Origin: Escherichia coli
GTDB lineage: Bacteria; Pseudomonadota; Gammaproteobacteria; Enterobacterales; Enterobacteriaceae
Reading direction: 5' to 3' (one strand)
NCBI RefSeq assembly: GCF_003334405.1
Contig: NZ_QOWM01000023.1
Length of the DNA stretch: 45,349 nt
Part shown: positions 6,450-39,770 of the stretch, piece by piece
How positions within the stretch are numbered: the stretch's first letter is position 1
Layout of the letters: every line of letters begins with the position of its first letter
Notes under the pieces: model-generated
What the model was told of the DNA's origin: nothing
The model's database searches: none
Seen by the model: only the letters and a program-made list of their open reading frames with translations
Translations under genes and position numbers: made by a program

Positions 6450-7589
6450 TTAGTACAGAGAGTGGGTGTTACGTTCAATATCTTCTTTGGTGATACGACC
6501 GAACATTTTCCAGTAACACCAGGCGGTGTAGAGCAGAATGATCGGTACCAGAACCACCGCAACCCAGGTCATGACGTTAAGCGTCAGCTGGCTGGAAGTT
6601 GCATCCCACATTGTCAGACTTGCGTTCATCATGGTGCTGGACGGCATCACAAACGGGAACATTGCGATACCGGCTGTCAGGATGATGCAGGCCAGCGTCA
6701 GGGAGGAGAACACAAACGCCCACGCGGCTTTATCCATACGTGCAGTCAGGATGGTCAGCAGCGGCAGAACCACACCCAGTGCCGGAATAGCCCACAGAAT
6801 TGGCGTGTTGTTGAAGTTAACCAGCCATGCGCCAGCTTCACGAACCACTTCTTTATTCAGTGGGTTAGAGGCTGCGTAATGGTCCATTGTCGATTTCACG
6901 ACATAACCATCGATACCGTACATCACCCATACGCCAGCCAGTGCGAAACAGACCAGTGTCACCAGCGCAGCCACCTGAGCCGTTGCACGGGTACGCAGGT
7001 GCAGTTCGCCCACGGTACGCATTTGCAGATAGGTTGCGCCCTGAGTAATGATCATCCCTACGCTCACCACGCCTGCCAGCAGGCCGAACGGGTTAAGCAA
7101 CTGGAAGAAGTTACCGGTGTAGTACAGACGCAGATATTCATCAACGTTGAACGGTACGCCCTGCAACAGGTTACCGAACGCTACACCAATTACCAGCGGC
7201 GGAACGAAGCTACCAATGAAGATGCCCCAGTCCCACATGTTACGCCAGCGGGTTTCTTCAATCTTGGAGCGGTAGTCAAAACCGACCGGACGGAAGAACA
7301 AAGACGCCAGCACGAGGATCATCGCCACATAGAAGCCGGAGAACGCAGCGGCATAGACCATCGGCCAGGCAGCAAAGAGTGCGCCGCCCGCGGTGATCAG
7401 CCAAACCTGGTTACCGTCCCAGTGTGGTGCAATGGAGTTAATCATAATTCGACGCTCGGTGTCGTTACGACCGAGGAAACGGGTGAGCATGCCCACCCCC
7501 ATGTCGAAACCGTCAGTGACTGCAAAACCAATCAGCAGAACGCCAACCAGCAGCCACCAGATAAAACGCAATACTTCATAATCGATCAT
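6450..7589 (-). CDS. cydB: Cytochrome bd-I ubiquinol oxidase subunit II
   Basis: 379 aa polytopic membrane protein, MIDYEVLRFIWWLLVGVLLIGFAVTDGFDMGVGML. Confidence 0.96.
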   Translation of the reverse strand: MIDYEVLRFIWWLLVGVLLIGFAVTDGFDMGVGMLTRFLGRNDTERRIMINSIAPHWDGNQVWLITAGGALFAAWPMVYAAAFSGFYVAMILVLASLFFRPVGFDYRSKIEETRWRNMWDWGIFIGSFVPPLVIGVAFGNLLQGVPFNVDEYLRLYYTGNFFQLLNPFGLLAGVVSVGMIITQGATYLQMRTVGELHLRTRATAQVAALVTLVCFALAGVWVMYGIDGYVVKSTMDHYAASNPLNKEVVREAGAWLVNFNNTPILWAIPALGVVLPLLTILTARMDKAAWAFVFSSLTLACIILTAGIAMFPFVMPSSTMMNASLTMWDATSSQLTLNVMTWVAVVLVPIILLYTAWCYWKMFGRITKEDIERNTHSLY

Positions 7590-7604: not shown

Positions 7605-9173
7605 TTAGCGTGCCGGCTGAGTAGTCGTGGAAGACTGCTCAAAGTGATAGCGACCGGTTTTCAGGCTGCTTGGGCCGAGGCGTGCAAACTTGAACATTAA
7701 GAACAATTCTGCCACCAGGAACAGGGTATACAGGCCGCAAATCAGCACCATTGAGAAGATGAGATCGCCTGCGGTCAGTGACGAGTTCGCCACAGCTGTC
7801 GGCAGCACTTCACCGATAGCCCACGGTTGGCGGCCATATTCAGCCACGAACCAGCCCGCTTCTACAGCAATCCACGGCAGCGGAATACCGTACAGCGCGG
7901 CGCGCAGAAGCCATTTTTTCTCGCCAATGCGGTTGCGGATGACACTCCAGAAAGAGAGCGCGATGATTGCCAGAAGCAGGAAGCCACACGCCACCATGAT
8001 ACGGAACGCAAAGTACAGCGGCGCTACACGCGGGATGGAGTCTTTGGTTGCCTGTTGAATCTGCGCTTCAGTCGCATCAGCCACGTTTGGCGTATAGCGT
8101 TTCAGCAGCAGACCGTAACCGAGGTCTTTCTTCATGCTATTGAACTGGTCACGAACCGCCTGGTCGGTAGAACCAGAACGCAGTTGTTCGAGCAGAGAGT
8201 ACGCCTTCATCCCGTTACGAATGCGTTCTTCATGCTGCACCATCAGCTCTTTCAGGCCGATAACCGGGGTATCCACGGAACGCGTTGCAATGATGCCCAG
8301 TGCGTAAGGGATCTGAATCGCAAATTTGTTCGTCTCCTCTTCCTGATCAGGAATGCCGAACAGAGTAAAGGCAGCAGGCGCAGGTTGCGTTTCCCACTCG
8401 GCTTCAATAGCAGCCAGTTTGGTTTTCTGCACGTCGCCCATTTCGTAGCCGGATTCATCACCCAGAACAATAACAGACAGAACAGCAGCCATACCGAAGC
8501 TGGCAGCGATAGCAAAGGAGCGTTTAGCGAAGGCGAAGTCACGACCTTTCAGCATATACCATGCGCTGATACCGAGGATGAACATCGCGCCAGTCACATA
8601 ACCAGACGCTACAGTGTGAACGAATTTCACCTGAGCAACCGGGTTAAGCACCAGCTCGGAGAAGCTCACCATCTCCATACGCATAGTTTCAAAGTTGAAA
8701 TCGGACGCGATTGGGTTTTGCATCCAGCCGTTCGCAACCAGAATCCACAGTGCGGACAGGTTTGAACCGAGCGCCACCAGCCAGGTGACACACATATGCT
8801 GAACTTTACCCAGACGATCCCAACCGAAGAAGAACAGACCTACAAAGGTGGATTCGAGGAAGAAGGCCATCAGACCTTCGATTGCCAGCGGCGCACCGAA
8901 GATATCCCCTACATAGTGGGAATAGTAAGACCAGTTAGTCCCGAACTGGAACTCCATGGTCAGACCGGTAGCCACACCCAGAGCGAAGTTGATACCAAAC
9001 AACTTGCCCCAGAACTTGGTCATATCTTTATAAATCTGTTTGCCGGAGAGGACGTAGACCGTTTCCATAATGGCCAGCAGGAACGCCATACCGAGCGTCA
9101 GTGGCACAAAAAGGAAGTGGTACATCGCGGTCAAGGCAAACTGTAAGCGCGACAGTTCGACTATATCTAACAT
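7605..9173 (-). CDS. cydA: Cytochrome bd-I ubiquinol oxidase subunit I
   Basis: 522 aa from [31 protein letters not shown], including the Q-loop. The ORF-track start at 9176 is one Met upstream. Confidence 0.96.
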
Positions 9174-9455
9174 CATGACTCCTTGCTCATCGCATGAAGA
9201 CTCCGAGAGTGAACCCCGTTAGAAAGGGTCACACGCATGCCCCAATAGAAATTTGTTTGAACACTTTCATCATACCATGTGAATGCACACAAAAACGGCG
9301 TAAAGAAAGGTTGCAAACATGTTAATAAAAACTCAAATTGATCCCACGTATATATTACGCCGCAAAATCCTTACAATAAACAGGTTTTTGTTGAAGCAAA
9401 TTTGCATTTTTCGACGGTGATCAATTTATAGCTAAATCACCGCCTTTCAGCCAAT

Positions 9456-9521
9456 TTGATCGAGAACAATTTATCTCTTTTTGATGCCCATTTCCAAGGC
9501 TTATACATTGATAAATATCAA
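9456..9521. promoter_or_regulatory. cydAB upstream control region with FNR-type palindromes
   Basis: TTGATAAATATCAA (9508-9521) matches the FNR consensus TTGAT-N4-ATCAA exactly. A second near-site, TTGATCGAGAACAA, lies at 9456-9469. Both are about 280-350 bp upstream of the cydA start in an AT-rich 846-bp leader. Confidence 0.45.
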
Positions 9522-10019
9522 TTCCTACAAATTATGTTAATCATGTTTCAATAAGGTAACTTTAGTGACATTTATGTTTAAAATGTGTGAGTTATAAGGC
9601 TGAAATTAGTTTCGGTTGGCAATTAAAGATAAAAAGAGACGAAGCAAAAACAGCACGGTTGACCTTAATTCTTTTTTTGGTCACTGGCTAATACGACGCA
9701 GAGTTTCAGGATTACTAATAAAGGCATAAATCCACCCCGCCAATATTAACATTTAGTTAACTTATAATTATATTATAATTAACTCACCCAGGGTTATTAT
9801 TTTGTTAAAAATAAAGCCACATATACGTGGCTTGAGAGTGAAGATAAACGCAAAATTACCTGATGCGCTACGCTTGCCAGTGTCTACATCATCTCTGCAA
9901 TATATTGAATTTGCCTGCTTTTGTAGACCGAATAAAGCGTTCATGCCGTATCCGGCATGAACAAAGCGCCCTTTGTCAACAATCTGGCCGCGCATATGTG
10001 GCTTCGGTTTGATTGCTAT

Positions 10020-12653
10020 TCAGGCAAGCCGGTAACTGAACGTCCGTGACTGGCCGGGTAAAAAAGGCCCCGATAGATTTGAACCTTGATTTTCCTCGGT
10101 GGTAATGTGTTCATCCATCATCGTTTCTGAGCAAGAAATCACCTCGCGACTGAAAGCAACAGTCGCATCACAGGTTGCTGATTCAGCCGGATTAAACAGC
10201 CGTAAAATCACTTCTTGTCGGTCTTCAGCTTTCTTAAGTGCGCTTATCAGGCATCCCACTGGGGGCATTTTCAACAAACTATAACTTTCCGGCACGTTGA
10301 ATCCGGCTTTGTTGAGCTTCATCACATCCCATGGGATTTTGTTGTAACACTGTACTGGAGTCAGCCATGCTCGCGCCTGCTGAGCTACACCAGCGGCGGT
10401 TGGCGTACCGGTATAACTCAATAAACTTAGGCGACAAGAAAGCAGACCACGTAGTTGTGAGTCCGGGACTGGCATTTTAATTCCCGAAGGCCGCCCAGGC
10501 CTTAAAAGCAGATCTTCTTTGCCCAGTAAGCCCACGCCACGCAGCAACGTAATGGCAAAGGTTTTCTTCTCTTCACCGATGACTTCAAATTCACGTAACC
10601 CTTCGCTAAAGACAGCCATGCCGTTACGCCCTTCCTGTAAGGCAACATAGTTGAGCATATTCCATACCGGAACCGGCGCTTCTTTCCAGCCTTCTTGCTG
10701 CCAGTTGTTCATTGCACTGTCGTTCACGGGGCGCGTTAGCGAACCAAACTGCGTATCTGCCAGAACACTGTCGGTGTTAAAAGGTGTAGGGACCAGGACA
10801 CGAAGGCGATGATCGTCAGCCTGGTTATCAAGATTGATATCCACATCAATACGCCTGCTGTTATGACTAAGAGTGACAACCAACACCACCCCTACTCTGC
10901 CAGTGGATTGCCGGGCGCTGCGTTCTGACAAATTGAGCGGCACTGCCATGTCATAGCGGATAACAGCCCTGCTCTGCCAGGCTTCATGAATAATATCGCA
11001 TTGCGGTTTCGCGTTCGCTGCGGTAATTACCCACTCTTCTTTTGCGGGTGAATAGTCATATTCATCACCATCATCAGAGCTTTCTTCAATTTGCAATACC
11101 CGGTCATAGCGCACACCGCTGTCTTTATCTACCAGTTGCAGAGAACCATCCTCATTGAGCGCAATTTGCCAGAAAGCATTTTCCAGTATCCCTTCAGCGT
11201 CACTTTTTGCCGCAATTACGTTGCCAGGCTGATTCGCTTCGATATAAAGCGTGCGATAGCCCATAGAAGGGACAATCTGGTTGATCTGTATATCAAACTC
11301 CATAAAGGGATCATAATTACCGTAATGAACTATTTGCCGATCGATTAGGCCTGGATCGATCTCACGGGCATGGCGAATAAAATACGGTACAGGCTGACCG
11401 CGATCGTCCCGCAAATTAAACTGGCTGGCGCGCAGCCGCACAGTGGTGTTGATAACTTCTTCACGCGGCCAGGGCATCAGGTTAAACAGGACGAGTTTGT
11501 CGGCGTCGCTCTGCGGCATGTTGTCGGCAATTTTGCGCATGTAGAAACGAATCAGATTATCCGCCATGTCTTCAGCCAGTTCGAAGCGGGCGACGATTTC
11601 GCGATGAACTTTGTCACTACAGCAGCAGCCGATACTGTCGTGGGCATGATTTTTTAAGATCTCTTTCCACATTTTCTCCAGCAAGCCGTGGTGGTATTCA
11701 AAACCCAACGTCCAGGCCAGTGTTGCCAGCGGTTCCAGCAGATTAACAATCTTATTTTCAATACGCGCGTGGGCAATTTTGATATCCATACGCGTAGAAC
11801 CGATGGTGCGATGCACGCGCATATATTTGCCATCAATAAATTCCCCTTTCAGGGTTGCCAGATTATCTCGCTGCGCTTCGATCTTCTCAAATACCTCTTC
11901 AAAGCGGCTCATCACAAACTTACGTTGAGGGTAGATCTCACGTAGCTTATCCATCACTTCGAAGATATTTTGCTGCAATGGCATCTGGTCATGCCCATTC
12001 GGCAGCAAAATCTCTTTGGTTACAGACGCTTTTTCCAGCACGTCAAAATAACTGTCGAGGCGTTTACGTAATCCGTTTTCGTCGGCAGGTAAGTACTTAC
12101 CGATGGCGTAGCCCAGCGGCAGCACCTGCGCCGTCACTTCGCTACCGTCACTGCTTTGCCACAAAAACTCGGTTTTATCAGTACCGTGGCGCTCCGAACA
12201 TCCGCGCCAGAACATGGTGCGGGTAATGCCAAATCCATTGTAGATATGCGGCAGTTGCCCGGACATGCCAAAGGAATCTGGTAAATAACCTATTTTCATC
12301 GGCTCGCCAAACGCGAGGCAGTCACGCATTCCGTACATCAGATTACGGACGATGGATTCCGCAGAAACAATCGTGGTATCGGTCTGGGTATACCAGGGGC
12401 CGATAATCAACTTGCCGGCTTCTACCTGTTTCTTCACACGGTCTTTGTTTTCCGGTTTCACCGCGAAATAATCTTCGAGGATCGCCGTTTGCCCGTCGAG
12501 TACGTAATATTTGTATTCGTTGTCCTGTTCCAGTCGGCACAGGATCTCTTCCATATTATTGACCAGCAGAATACGTGACTCTTCGGTGGTGAAATACCAC
12601 TCTCGATCCCAGTGCATATGCGGGGTGATGTGAACGCGAGATACTGCTTTCAT
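10020..12653 (-). CDS. mngB: Mannosylglycerate hydrolase (GH38 alpha-mannosidase)
   Basis: 877 aa, [30 protein letters not shown] (GH38 N-terminal motif); immediately downstream of mngA. Confidence 0.93.
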
Positions 12654-16451: not shown

Positions 16452-17617
16452 TATTTCCCCTCCACTGCGGCAACAACCTGCTGAGCTGCATCCGTCAGAC
16501 CTTTTGCTGCAATAATATTCAGGCCGCTGTCAGCCAGTTTCTTCGCGCCGAGTTCGGCGTTGTTACCTTCCAGACGTACCACGACCGGTACGTTAACACC
16601 CACTTCTGCTACCGCGCCGATGATACCGTCAGCGATCAGGTCGCAACGAACGATACCGCCGAAGATGTTAACCAGAACGGCTTTCACTTTGTCGTCAGAG
16701 AGGATGATTTTGAACGCTTCGGTTACACGTTCTTTGGTTGCGCCGCCGCCAACGTCAAGGAAGTTAGCCGGTTCGCCGCCGTGCAGTTTAACGATGTCCA
16801 TCGTACCCATCGCCAGACCTGCGCCGTTAACCATACAACCGATGTTACCGTCCAGCGCAACGTAGTTCAGTTCCCACTGTGCAGCCTGTGCTTCACGCGG
16901 ATCTTCCTGCGACTGGTCACGCATTTCGCGCAGATCAGGCTGGCGGAACAGTGCGTTGCCGTCAGCGCCCAGTTTGCCGTCGAGGCAAATCAGATCGCCC
17001 TGTTTGGTGATGACCAGCGGGTTGATTTCGATCAACGCCAGGTCGCGCTCCAGGAAAATGGTCGCCAGGCCCATGAAGATTTTGGTGAACTGCTGAACCA
17101 GTTTACCTTCCAGACCCAGTTTGAACGCCAGCTCGCGTCCCTGATACGGCATCGGGCCAGTCAGCGGATCAAGCGCAACTTTATGGATCAGGTGCGGAGT
17201 TTCTTCCGCCACTTTTTCGATTTCCACGCCGCCTTCGGTGGAGGCCATAAAGACCACACGACGGGAACTACGGTCAACAACGGCACCGAGATACAGCTCT
17301 TTAGCGATATCGGTCGCTGCTTCAACCAGAATCTGGTTAACCGGTTGGCCATTGGCATCTGTTTGATACGTTACCAGACGCTTGCCCAGCCAGTTTTCTG
17401 CAAAAGCACGGATGTCTTCTTTGCTGTTTACAACTTTCACACCGCCCGCTTTACCGCGGCCACCAGCGTGAACCTGACATTTCACTACCCACGGACCGGC
17501 ACCGATTTTTGAAGCGGCTTCTTCTGCTTCGCGCGGAGTAGTACAGGCATAACCCACCGGTGCTGGTAAGCCATAGCGGGCAAAAAGTTGTTTTGCCTGA
17601 TATTCATGTAAGTTCAT
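16451..17617 (-). CDS. sucC: Succinyl-CoA synthetase beta subunit
   Basis: 388 aa, [39 protein letters not shown] (ATP-grasp); overlaps the sucD start by 1 nt. Confidence 0.97.
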
Positions 17618-17699: not shown

Positions 17700-17960
17700 C
17701 CCGTAGGCCTGATAAGACACGTTAAACGTCACATCAGGCATCGCTTGTCGGATGCGGCGCTTGCGCCTTATCCGACCTACATTGGTGGTCCCCGTAGGCC
17801 TGATAAGACACGTTAACCGTCACATCAGGCATCGCTTGTCGGATGCGGCGCTAGCGCCTTATCCGACCTACATTGGTGGTCCCGTAGGCCTGATAAGACG
17901 CGTCAGCGTCGCATCAGGCTTCAATTGCCGGAGAAGGCGATAATGCCTTATCCGGTCTAC
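17700..17960. repeat. Tandem array of three ~90-bp BIME/REP units in the sucB-sucC intergenic region
   Basis: Units at 17700-17790 and 17791-17880 are near-identical (two substitutions and one indel by eye). A third, more diverged unit lies at 17881-17960. Each unit holds two REP-type palindromes (GCCTGATAAGAC...GTCACATCAGGC and GTCGGATGCGGCGC..GCGCCTTATCCGAC). Confidence 0.85.
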
Positions 17961-22195: not shown

Positions 22196-22316
22196 GCCTG
22201 ATGCGCTGCGCTTATCAGGCCTACGGGTAATGACTTGTAGGCCGGATAAGGCGTTCACGCCGCATCCGGCACTGGTTGCCTGATGCGACGCTTGCGCGTC
22301 TTATCAGGCCTACGGT
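22196..22316. repeat. REP (BIME) palindromic units in the sdhB-sucA intergenic region
   Basis: Three REP-type palindromes: GCCTGATGCGCTGCGCTTATCAGGCCTAC, GTAGGCCGGATAAGGCGTTCACGCCGCATCCGGC, GCCTGATGCGACGCTTGCGCGTCTTATCAGGCCTAC. They abut the sdhB stop codon. Confidence 0.85.
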
Positions 22317-39662: not shown

Positions 39663-39770
39663 GCCTGATGCGACGCTTGACGCGTCTTATCAGGCCTACG
39701 TATTTCCTGCAATTTATTGAATTTGCACAAATTTGTAGGCTGGATAAGGCGTTCACGCCGCATCCGGCAT
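39663..39770. repeat. REP (BIME) palindromic units between dtpD and phr
   Basis: GCCTGATGCGACGCTTGACGCGTCTTATCAGGCCTAC and the inverted GTAGGCTGGATAAGGCGTTCACGCCGCATCCGGC, separated by an AT-rich spacer. Confidence 0.85.

Follow-up and report, generated by a model that had tools for sequence, protein, structure and literature searches.

The stretch of DNA between mngB and cydA in Escherichia coli raises the question of how much of a long, AT-rich, non-coding spacer is devoted to the regulation of cydAB, and whether the FNR-like motifs that can be read in it are genuine binding sites or chance matches. The spacer was analysed within a window of 45,349 nucleotides (the whole stretch of DNA considered here), which runs reverse to K-12 numbering and is nearly identical to K-12 around cydA, with only four differing positions in its first 17.7 kb and ~99.87% identity beyond them. 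On the minus strand, cydB (6450-7589), cydA (7605-9173, or 9176 if an upstream in-frame ATG is taken), mngB (10020-12653) and, alongside mngB, mngA were identified with NCBIfam equivalog models and the MG1655 RefSeq annotation, which is collinear. The intergenic spacer on the same strand (9174-10019), as delimited by open reading frames and the RefSeq annotation, measures 846 bp with the RefSeq cydA start at 9173 and 843 bp with the in-frame ATG at 9176. The original prediction, made from the letters of the sequence, had described an 846-bp non-coding region in front of cydA that is AT-rich and contains multiple A/T tracts, and this description is borne out: the GC content is 36.9% in the spacer and 32.5% in its core (9251-9840) versus 50.5% in the window, and the spacer holds nine A/T runs of at least five bases, or 10.6 per kb versus 3.7 per kb. 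The analyses below indicate that the spacer is almost certainly a composite of the control region through which the cydABX-ybgE operon responds to oxygen and, adjoining it, the 3' end of the mngAB operon.

Read in the direction of cydA, the spacer consists of the mngB stop codon, a pair of REP elements, the mngB terminator and ~640 bp of AT-rich regulatory DNA; it is, in other words, the cydAB regulatory region plus the 3' flank of mngB. Because both the REP pair and the intrinsic terminator of mngB lie in the distal ~200 bp, this portion is the end of the mngAB operon and is situated outside the cydA leader. The earlier description of the whole region as a long cydAB leader consequently holds for the part downstream of the promoters but not for these distal ~200 bp. 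The terminator (9814-9833, minus strand) was found by a terminator scan and has a 7-8 bp stem (AAGCCAC/GUGGCUU) followed by UUUAUUUUU, with a free energy of -10.2 kcal/mol (z = -6.1). The REP-like palindromes that had been noticed at the distal end, at about 9840-10000, turned out to be a real Y/Z pair of the BIME type (9859-9956). It comprises a Y-type REP on the minus strand (9956-9923), which matches 29 of 34 consensus positions, and a Z-type REP on the plus strand (9859-9887), which matches the consensus with one indel and three substitutions. The two are arranged tail to tail (inverted), with the mngB stop codon on one side of the pair and the terminator on the other, and the 35-bp linker that separates them (9888-9922) holds TGCAATATATTGAATTTGC, a motif also present beside another REP at 39708-39726. 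The REP consensus was validated in the window itself, where it is matched exactly, as at 22198-22270 and 39735-39768, or with one mismatch. As in the BIME/REP elements of E. coli generally, inverted Y and Z REPs with a linker that resembles the L type in sequence occupy an extragenic position after a stop codon; in contrast to a typical BIME, both REPs here are decayed, the Y-type by five transitions and the Z-type by the changes noted above. Y and Z REPs with an L-type linker form the BIME class reported to bind IHF. A scan of positions 8800-10400 against Rfam (E up to 1) assigned no family, and its sole hit, a sub-threshold match to ES036 that scored 21.9 bits where the family's gathering score is 37.6, is located in the BIME linker. 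Shimada et al. (2014) assigned a 'constitutive promoter', TCTACA-17-TATATT, inside this REP pair element.

Within the AT-rich DNA, two FNR boxes stand out. The first, Fnr-1 (9508-9521; TTGATAAATATCAA, or TTGATATTTATCAA in the cydA sense), matches the consensus at ten of ten half-site bases, and the second, Fnr-2 (9456-9469; TTGATCGAGAACAA, or TTGTTCTCGATCAA in the cydA sense), at nine of ten; their centres are 52 bp apart. Both positions had been predicted exactly. The characterization of Fnr-1 as a perfect FNR consensus palindrome is correct insofar as both half-sites are consensus, but the site is not a perfect palindrome, because its AAAT spacer is not self-complementary. Allowing at most one mismatch, TTGATNNNNATCAA has six matches in the window where 1.67 would be expected, a count reached in 0 of 100 shuffles, and two of these six matches are the ones lying 52 bp apart within the spacer. 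A weight matrix was then constructed from 61 ChIP-bound FNR sites (Myers et al. 2013, Table S6), with the two cydA sites left out. With this matrix Fnr-1 scores 17.0 bits and Fnr-2 13.5 bits, ranking second and fourth in the 45 kb; the former outscores 47 of the 61 bound sites and the latter 11.

Since the region is AT-rich and TTGAT and ATCAA are themselves AT-rich words, the two motifs might be thought functionless chance matches to local base composition. Consistent with such caution, a consensus sequence inside sucC (17022-17035) scores above the cydA sites and nevertheless appears in Table S6 of Myers et al. (2013) as a site without FNR binding in vivo, so that motif quality alone is no proof of binding. 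Against chance, simulated sequence of matched composition and 843 bp in length would contain two or more sites of this quality with a probability of only 0.0015. More directly, Table S6 of Myers et al. (2013) lists two FNR sites for cydA in K-12, at 770333 (TTGATATTTATCAA) and 770385 (TTGTTCTCGATCAA), and flags each of them as situated at an FNR ChIP-seq peak. By the coordinate rule derived from the ArcA box sequences of Park et al. (2013), under which subtracting the window coordinate from 779854 yields the U00096.2 coordinate, these are the reverse complements of TTGATAAATATCAA and TTGATCGAGAACAA at the same coordinates, and the ChIP summit at 770404/5 falls at window position ~9450. Comparison with the mapped sites thus places the predicted motifs on the published FNR sites, under the ChIP-seq peak, and not on unbound sequence beside footprints located elsewhere. 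Fnr-1 and Fnr-2 are therefore occupied by FNR in vivo, as judged from published K-12 data on identical sequence.

Conservation provides a second line of evidence that bears on the same alternative. Loci encoding close CydA relatives (80 in total) were collected from species-representative genomes. Among the 40 from Enterobacterales, 36 show an FNR site that scores 11.5 bits or more and lies 200-450 bp upstream of cydA, and 25 have a second site 50-52 nt away; the density of FNR sites upstream of cydA in this group is 5.4 per kb, compared with 0.05 per kb in the remainder of these loci, an approximately 100-fold enrichment that is difficult to reconcile with chance. All nine Vibrionaceae loci contain an FNR site, and six of the nine contain the pair. 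In an alignment of 14 upstream regions from multiple genera of Enterobacteriaceae, the conserved islands are the two FNR boxes, the cores of the promoters P1 and P2 described below, and the ArcA boxes. The FNR half-sites are nearly invariant in these 14 sequences while their inner spacers vary, and the same pattern, half-sites kept while spacers change, is seen between alleles of E. coli; the Fnr-2 block TTG[TC]NNNNGATCAA is present in 14 of the 14 aligned genera and alleles. Taken together, the published ChIP data and this conservation already refute the chance-match explanation, to which we assign next to no probability.

How FNR acts from these boxes depends on their position relative to the promoters. 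Myers et al. (2013, Table 1) placed an FNR site at -53.5 of the cydAB transcription start and classed cydAB as directly repressed by FNR. Because this published distance belongs to Fnr-1, whose centre is 341.5 bp upstream of the cydA ATG, the coordinate map sets the start of promoter P1 (9461-9497, minus strand) at 9461, giving a leader of 288 nt. The putative hexamers of P1, read from the sequence, would be a -35 element TTGGAA (9497-9492) and a -10 element TAAATT (9473-9468) with 18-bp spacing, and both blocks are kept across genera. Given -53.5 for Fnr-1 and the 52-bp spacing, the centre of Fnr-2 must lie at -1.5, where it overlaps the start and the -10 region of P1, a location that fits repression. 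One of the two cydA sites is presumably essential and the other auxiliary.

A second promoter, P2 or cydAp2 (9345-9357, minus strand), starts at 9345 with a 172-nt 5' UTR and a -10 element TAATAT (9357-9352). It is documented by several published datasets: Kim et al. (2012) reported a transcription start at 770509 together with its flanking sequence, corresponding to window position 9345 or -172; Mendoza-Vargas et al. (2009), using 5' RACE, reported a start at -174 labelled 'Known cydAp2'; and an anaerobic sigma-70 ChIP peak, also at 770509, coincides with the P2 start. The aerobic sigma-70 ChIP peak maps elsewhere, to ~9815. The P2 block is almost invariant across genera. Additionally, Shimada et al. 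(2014) reported that the mngB-cydA spacer has five promoters and multiple peaks of RNA polymerase binding. Relative to P2 the FNR boxes are located at approximately -117 and -169, so simple occlusion cannot account for any repression of this promoter.

The tandem arrangement of the boxes has parallels in yfiD and ompW, which have two FNR sites 53 bp and 45 bp apart, respectively (Myers et al. 2013, Table S6). In these genes, as in cydAB, a strong consensus box is accompanied, at a distance of about five helical turns, by a weaker one, with co-regulation by ArcA and an expression peak at low oxygen. They differ in that the promoter-proximal box of cydAB sits on the start (-1.5) and the net effect of FNR is repression, rather than activation from -41.5. 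A rival idea is that FNR has a dual role at cydAB, with at least one of the sites also activating a downstream promoter. In our own reading of the sequence, a conserved promoter-like element, TTGGCT-18-TATAAA, is present at 9454-9425, and its expected start would leave Fnr-2 ~43-45 bp upstream; furthermore, the ompW paper refers to cydAB as a promoter with site-dependent FNR effects. However, this spacing differs from the canonical -41.5, the start-site datasets of Kim et al. (2012) and Mendoza-Vargas et al. (2009) contain no start for the element, and the published net effect of FNR on cydAB is repression. We consequently regard a dual role as quite unlikely and retain direct repression at P1 as the preferred reading. 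Two further candidates from this part of the spacer were discarded: a Cra half-site at ~9437-9453, which was a match by eye and is not conserved across genera, and the conserved words TTGATC/GATCAA at ~9420 and ~9338, which were considered as extra FNR half-sites and lack a second half-site.

The other major component of the region is ArcA. Park et al. (2013) provided sequences and U00096.2 coordinates for three ArcA ChIP-seq sites upstream of cydA, and reported that the ArcA ChIP-seq peaks agree with earlier DNase I footprints. Site cydA1, mapped from the sequence in their Tables S2-S4, lies at 9743-9773 on the minus strand and contains three direct repeats. Among the ArcA ChIP-seq peaks in front of cydA, the one at this site is the strongest (Park et al. 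2013), and the top match in the window to an ArcA weight matrix built without the cydA boxes (20.3 bits, 9746-9763) is located within the site. Site cydA2, a cluster on the plus strand just upstream of Fnr-1 (9543-9594; predicted site 770260-770311 of Park et al. 2013), has matches of 13.0, 12.4 and 10.5 bits, and both the other E. coli allele and other genera have ArcA boxes at this distance from cydA. Site cydA3 (9298-9328, plus strand; Park et al. 2013) scores 14.9 bits and lies downstream of P2, ~152 bp upstream of the ATG; an ArcA box is found at -150 to -156 in every enterobacterial sequence scanned. Altogether, the spacer makes up 1.9% of the sequence and holds six of the window's 24 ArcA matches of at least 10 bits. 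ArcA-P boxes are TGTTA-like direct repeats ~11 bp apart, and the sites here combine a match to the ArcA box matrix with published ChIP-seq occupancy. With regard to H-NS, Shimada et al. (2014) flagged the mngB-cydA spacer 'HNS' and reviews credit Govantes et al. (2000) with H-NS repression of cydAB; H-NS enrichment is not recorded over the two cydA FNR boxes in Table S6 of Myers et al. (2013).

The prediction that cydAB is transcribed from multiple promoters under FNR and ArcA control thus agrees with published ChIP-seq and promoter data, and the weight-matrix scans, both of which were built without the cydA sites, recovered all of the published FNR and ArcA sites. It should be noted that the FNR sites, ArcA sites and multiple promoters of cydAB have been known since the 1990s and are confirmed by ChIP-seq; hence this finding is not new. 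The locus serves instead as a positive control, in which motif reading alone found real sites to the base.

These observations can be assembled into a model of oxygen-dependent control, in which phosphorylated ArcA binds the direct-repeat boxes at approximately -590, -420 to -380, and -152 from the ATG, and FNR dimers with an intact iron-sulfur cluster bind at -53.5 and -1.5 of P1, with transcription proceeding from P1 (288-nt leader), P2 (172-nt leader) and the further published promoters. Under anoxia, FNR positioned over the P1 start and -10 may block RNA polymerase; a box at -1.5 must overlap the footprint of the polymerase at P1, and steric occlusion, which is our own suggestion, is therefore the natural mechanism at this promoter. 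Summing up earlier work, Park et al. (2013) stated that ArcA activates cydAB microaerobically, mainly through disruption of H-NS, and that FNR represses it under anoxia; the same account is given in other papers. In keeping with this literature, ArcA-P would counter H-NS silencing of the AT-rich DNA as oxygen falls, and the combination of FNR repression with ArcA-P anti-silencing would produce the expression peak at low oxygen.

The length and AT-richness of the spacer might alternatively reflect an island junction, that is, an H-NS-silenced recombination scar rather than a large dedicated regulatory region. The gene content of the sucD-cydA interval does vary by lineage (mngRAB, a TPR gene or a methylaspartate island), homology between the two E. 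coli alleles described below is lost beyond ~-375, and the distal 200 bp are taken up by the REP pair and the mngB terminator. Nevertheless, the two E. coli alleles and several other Enterobacteriaceae have recurrent ArcA boxes at approximately -590, -420 to -380, and -152, even where their sequences can no longer be aligned, and of the ArcA ChIP peaks it is the distal one that is strongest. This recurrence and the position of the strongest peak mean that ~600 bp of the spacer does carry regulatory sites. A junction as the main explanation is thus unlikely, and we favour a large control region for cydABX-ybgE, with the qualification that the two views are partly compatible.

The comparison between lineages revealed that the regulatory region exists as two distinct alleles in E. 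coli. The spacer analysed here is found at 99% identity or more in 3,172 of 5,426 complete E. coli genomes. In ~2,245 complete genomes only the cydA-proximal 300-370 bp matches, at ~80% identity, and the upstream neighbour is a TPR gene or a methylaspartate-pathway island, not mngB. The leader is identical between the alleles up to -77, ~80% identical beyond this point and unalignable past ~-375, and the two are as distant from each other as either is from Citrobacter; the coding DNA of cydAB is 96-100% identical between the two types. In both alleles the FNR half-sites are preserved, as are the cores of P1 and P2, and the other allele has stronger ArcA boxes than the K-12-type allele. This pattern looks like the replacement of regulatory DNA in linkage with a variable island, which as a general phenomenon is known as the regulatory switching of intergenic regions.

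The window carries the K-12-type allele, and its spacer corresponds to the same locus as the K-12 cydAB promoter region studied previously (Cotter et al. 1997; Govantes et al. 2000; Myers et al. 2013; Park et al. 2013). Relative to K-12, 841 of 843 bases are identical, and the differences leave intact both FNR boxes, all three regions with ArcA boxes and the promoters P1 and P2. The two single-base differences, at 9438 (P1 +24, A to G) and 9499 (P1 -38, T to C), occur in 0 of 3,179 complete E. coli genomes with this allele. Although private, they were rejected as marks of something special: the alignment columns concerned are variable between genera, and both positions lie outside every mapped site; for these reasons they are probably neutral.

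A separate set of observations concerns the 5' UTR of cydA, where a conserved hairpin, H1 (9209-9234, minus strand; GUGUGACCC...GGGGUUCAC), was detected. The segment between the anchors GGGGCAUGCG and CUCUCGGAGUCUUC contains one hairpin of 6-10 bp in 14 of 14 distinct Enterobacteriaceae sequences. Its z-scores range from -2.7 to -4.1, with a mean of -3.37 versus -0.18 in upstream control segments. The stems themselves vary, with GUGACCC/GGGUUCAC in place of the GCGGAGCAC/GUGUUCUGC or GCGAAGCUU/AAGUUUUGC of other sequences. In a covariance-model alignment, double changes are seen at nine of nine H1 pairs, in an alignment that is fitted to the structure and hence biased towards it; long loop insertions make its rows from outside the Enterobacteriaceae unreliable. 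The many G-U pairs in H1 point to the sense RNA. The hairpin is visible only by the anchor-delimited segment test and the covariance-model alignment. RNAalifold applied to MAFFT alignments missed it, because MAFFT mis-registers the variable stems; folding energies of whole segments of 62-175 nt were not unusual (z -0.7 to +0.7); and the Rfam scan described above (8800-10400, E up to 1) gave no match to H1.

The ~40 nt that follow H1 are almost invariant across Enterobacterales. They include the near-invariant segment GUCUUCAUGCGAUGAGCAAGGAGUC (9177-9201, minus strand), in which a CUUC.UGC/GCA.GGAG pairing could cover the Shine-Dalgarno sequence. This pairing is the RNAalifold consensus of 17 sequences, among which there is no variation and hence no covariation, and it is kept in 34 distinct Enterobacterales sequences. 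The segment contains two GGA motifs ~24 nt apart, which could be candidate CsrA contacts. In Salmonella, CsrA has been reported to raise cydABX translation 3.5-fold, a finding that concerns the effect and not binding; a paper on E. coli CsrA transcriptomics does not mention cydA. The mini-ORF AUG-CGA-UGA (9195-9187), which has a GGAG of its own, was rejected as a conserved feature, as its start codon is CUG in Yersinia, Serratia and others. In its organization the cydA leader resembles leaders in which the Shine-Dalgarno sequence is occluded or CsrA is bound, with a covarying hairpin followed by a conserved helix covering the GGAG and two GGA motifs. Unlike those known leaders, it has no Rfam family, its occluding helix shows no covariation and the CsrA contact is putative. 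We tentatively propose, while considering it rather doubtful, that the last ~75 nt of the cydA 5' UTR form an undescribed post-transcriptional control element.

The covarying leader hairpin suggests a layer of control that has so far been unstudied, and if this proposal is true, the synthesis of cytochrome bd-I would be adjusted at the translational level in addition to its control by FNR and ArcA. With respect to transcription, we would like to emphasize that all mechanistic work on cydAB has been carried out on the K-12 allele, while in ~41% of complete E. coli genomes the upstream region is only ~80% identical to it and has stronger ArcA boxes. Lineages of E. coli, including B2 and O157/O145-type strains, may therefore differ in how cytochrome bd-I is tuned to oxygen.

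The cydA upstream region of E. coli exists as two deeply diverged alleles, as seen when window positions 9250-10019 were compared with the corresponding regions of five other loci (L005, L006, L007, L088 and L089). The K-12-like allele, with mngB upstream, is carried by ~58% of complete E. coli genomes, and the second allele, which has another upstream neighbour, by ~41%. The second allele shares only ~80% identity with that of the window from -77 to about -375 relative to the cydA start, whereas the cydAB genes of the two types match at 96-100% identity. The positions of the FNR and ArcA sites are common to both alleles.

Over the first 17.7 kb, only four differences from K-12 were found, three of which are intergenic. 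Two of these, both single-base changes, flank the start of the cydA promoter P1, at 9438 (P1 +24) and 9499 (P1 -38), and the third (14723) falls where the divergent mngA and mngR promoters lie. Neither the 9438 nor the 9499 variant was found in any of the 3,179 complete genomes carrying the window's allele. Collinearity with K-12 is lost at ~17780-17870, through an indel in the REP-rich sucB-sucC spacer, and a second time beyond 42750, at the window end that carries ISAs1/rhs. These two breaks indicate that the source strain is near K-12, yet is not K-12.

Weight matrices built without the cydA sites also returned matches outside the published cydA sites. The highest-scoring FNR consensus of the window, TTGATTTCGATCAA (17022-17035, 18.1 bits), lies within sucC; this site (762819) is listed as not bound in vivo, with overlapping H-NS and Fis enrichment (Myers 2013, Table S6). 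A predicted ArcA box, GGGTTATTATTTTGTTAA (9791-9808, plus strand, 16.1 bits), adjoins the mngB terminator and has no counterpart among the published cydA boxes.

The distal part of the spacer contains several further features around the REP pair (9859-9956). An 18-nt inverted repeat, with arms at 9814-9831 and 9987-10004 that are 89% complementary, encloses this pair; the first arm is the stem of the mngB terminator and the second lies just past the mngB stop codon. The repeat may be a trace of the insertion of the REP pair. A 75-codon minus-strand ORF at 9768-9995 is a hypothetical protein (WP_001324497.1) in the RefSeq annotation of many E. coli genomes, with no such annotation in MG1655. 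This ORF is probably a spurious call, since both REPs and the hairpin of the terminator lie within it. Published promoter signals also map to this segment: an aerobic sigma-70 ChIP peak (770039; Myers 2013, Table S2) corresponds to ~9815, beside the mngB terminator, and upstream of that terminator the REP pair includes the 'constitutive promoter' of Shimada, TCTACA-17-TATATT (9899-9927, minus strand).

Closer to the gene, a two-codon minus-strand mini-ORF, AUG CGA UGA (9187-9195), lies 13-21 nt before the cydA start, with its own GGAG five bases upstream. It is found in Escherichia, Citrobacter and Enterobacter and is absent in Yersinia and Serratia, which have CUG instead. Term-seq reportedly places a 3' end at -21 (Adams 2021). 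The cydA 5' UTR also contains a conserved minus-strand hairpin (9209-9234; flanks 9171-9247) whose stem sequence covaries across Enterobacteriaceae, and no Rfam family matched it. After the hairpin comes a near-invariant 40-nt stretch that contains two GGA motifs and can pair over the Shine-Dalgarno sequence. In Salmonella, translation of cydABX is reportedly raised by CsrA.
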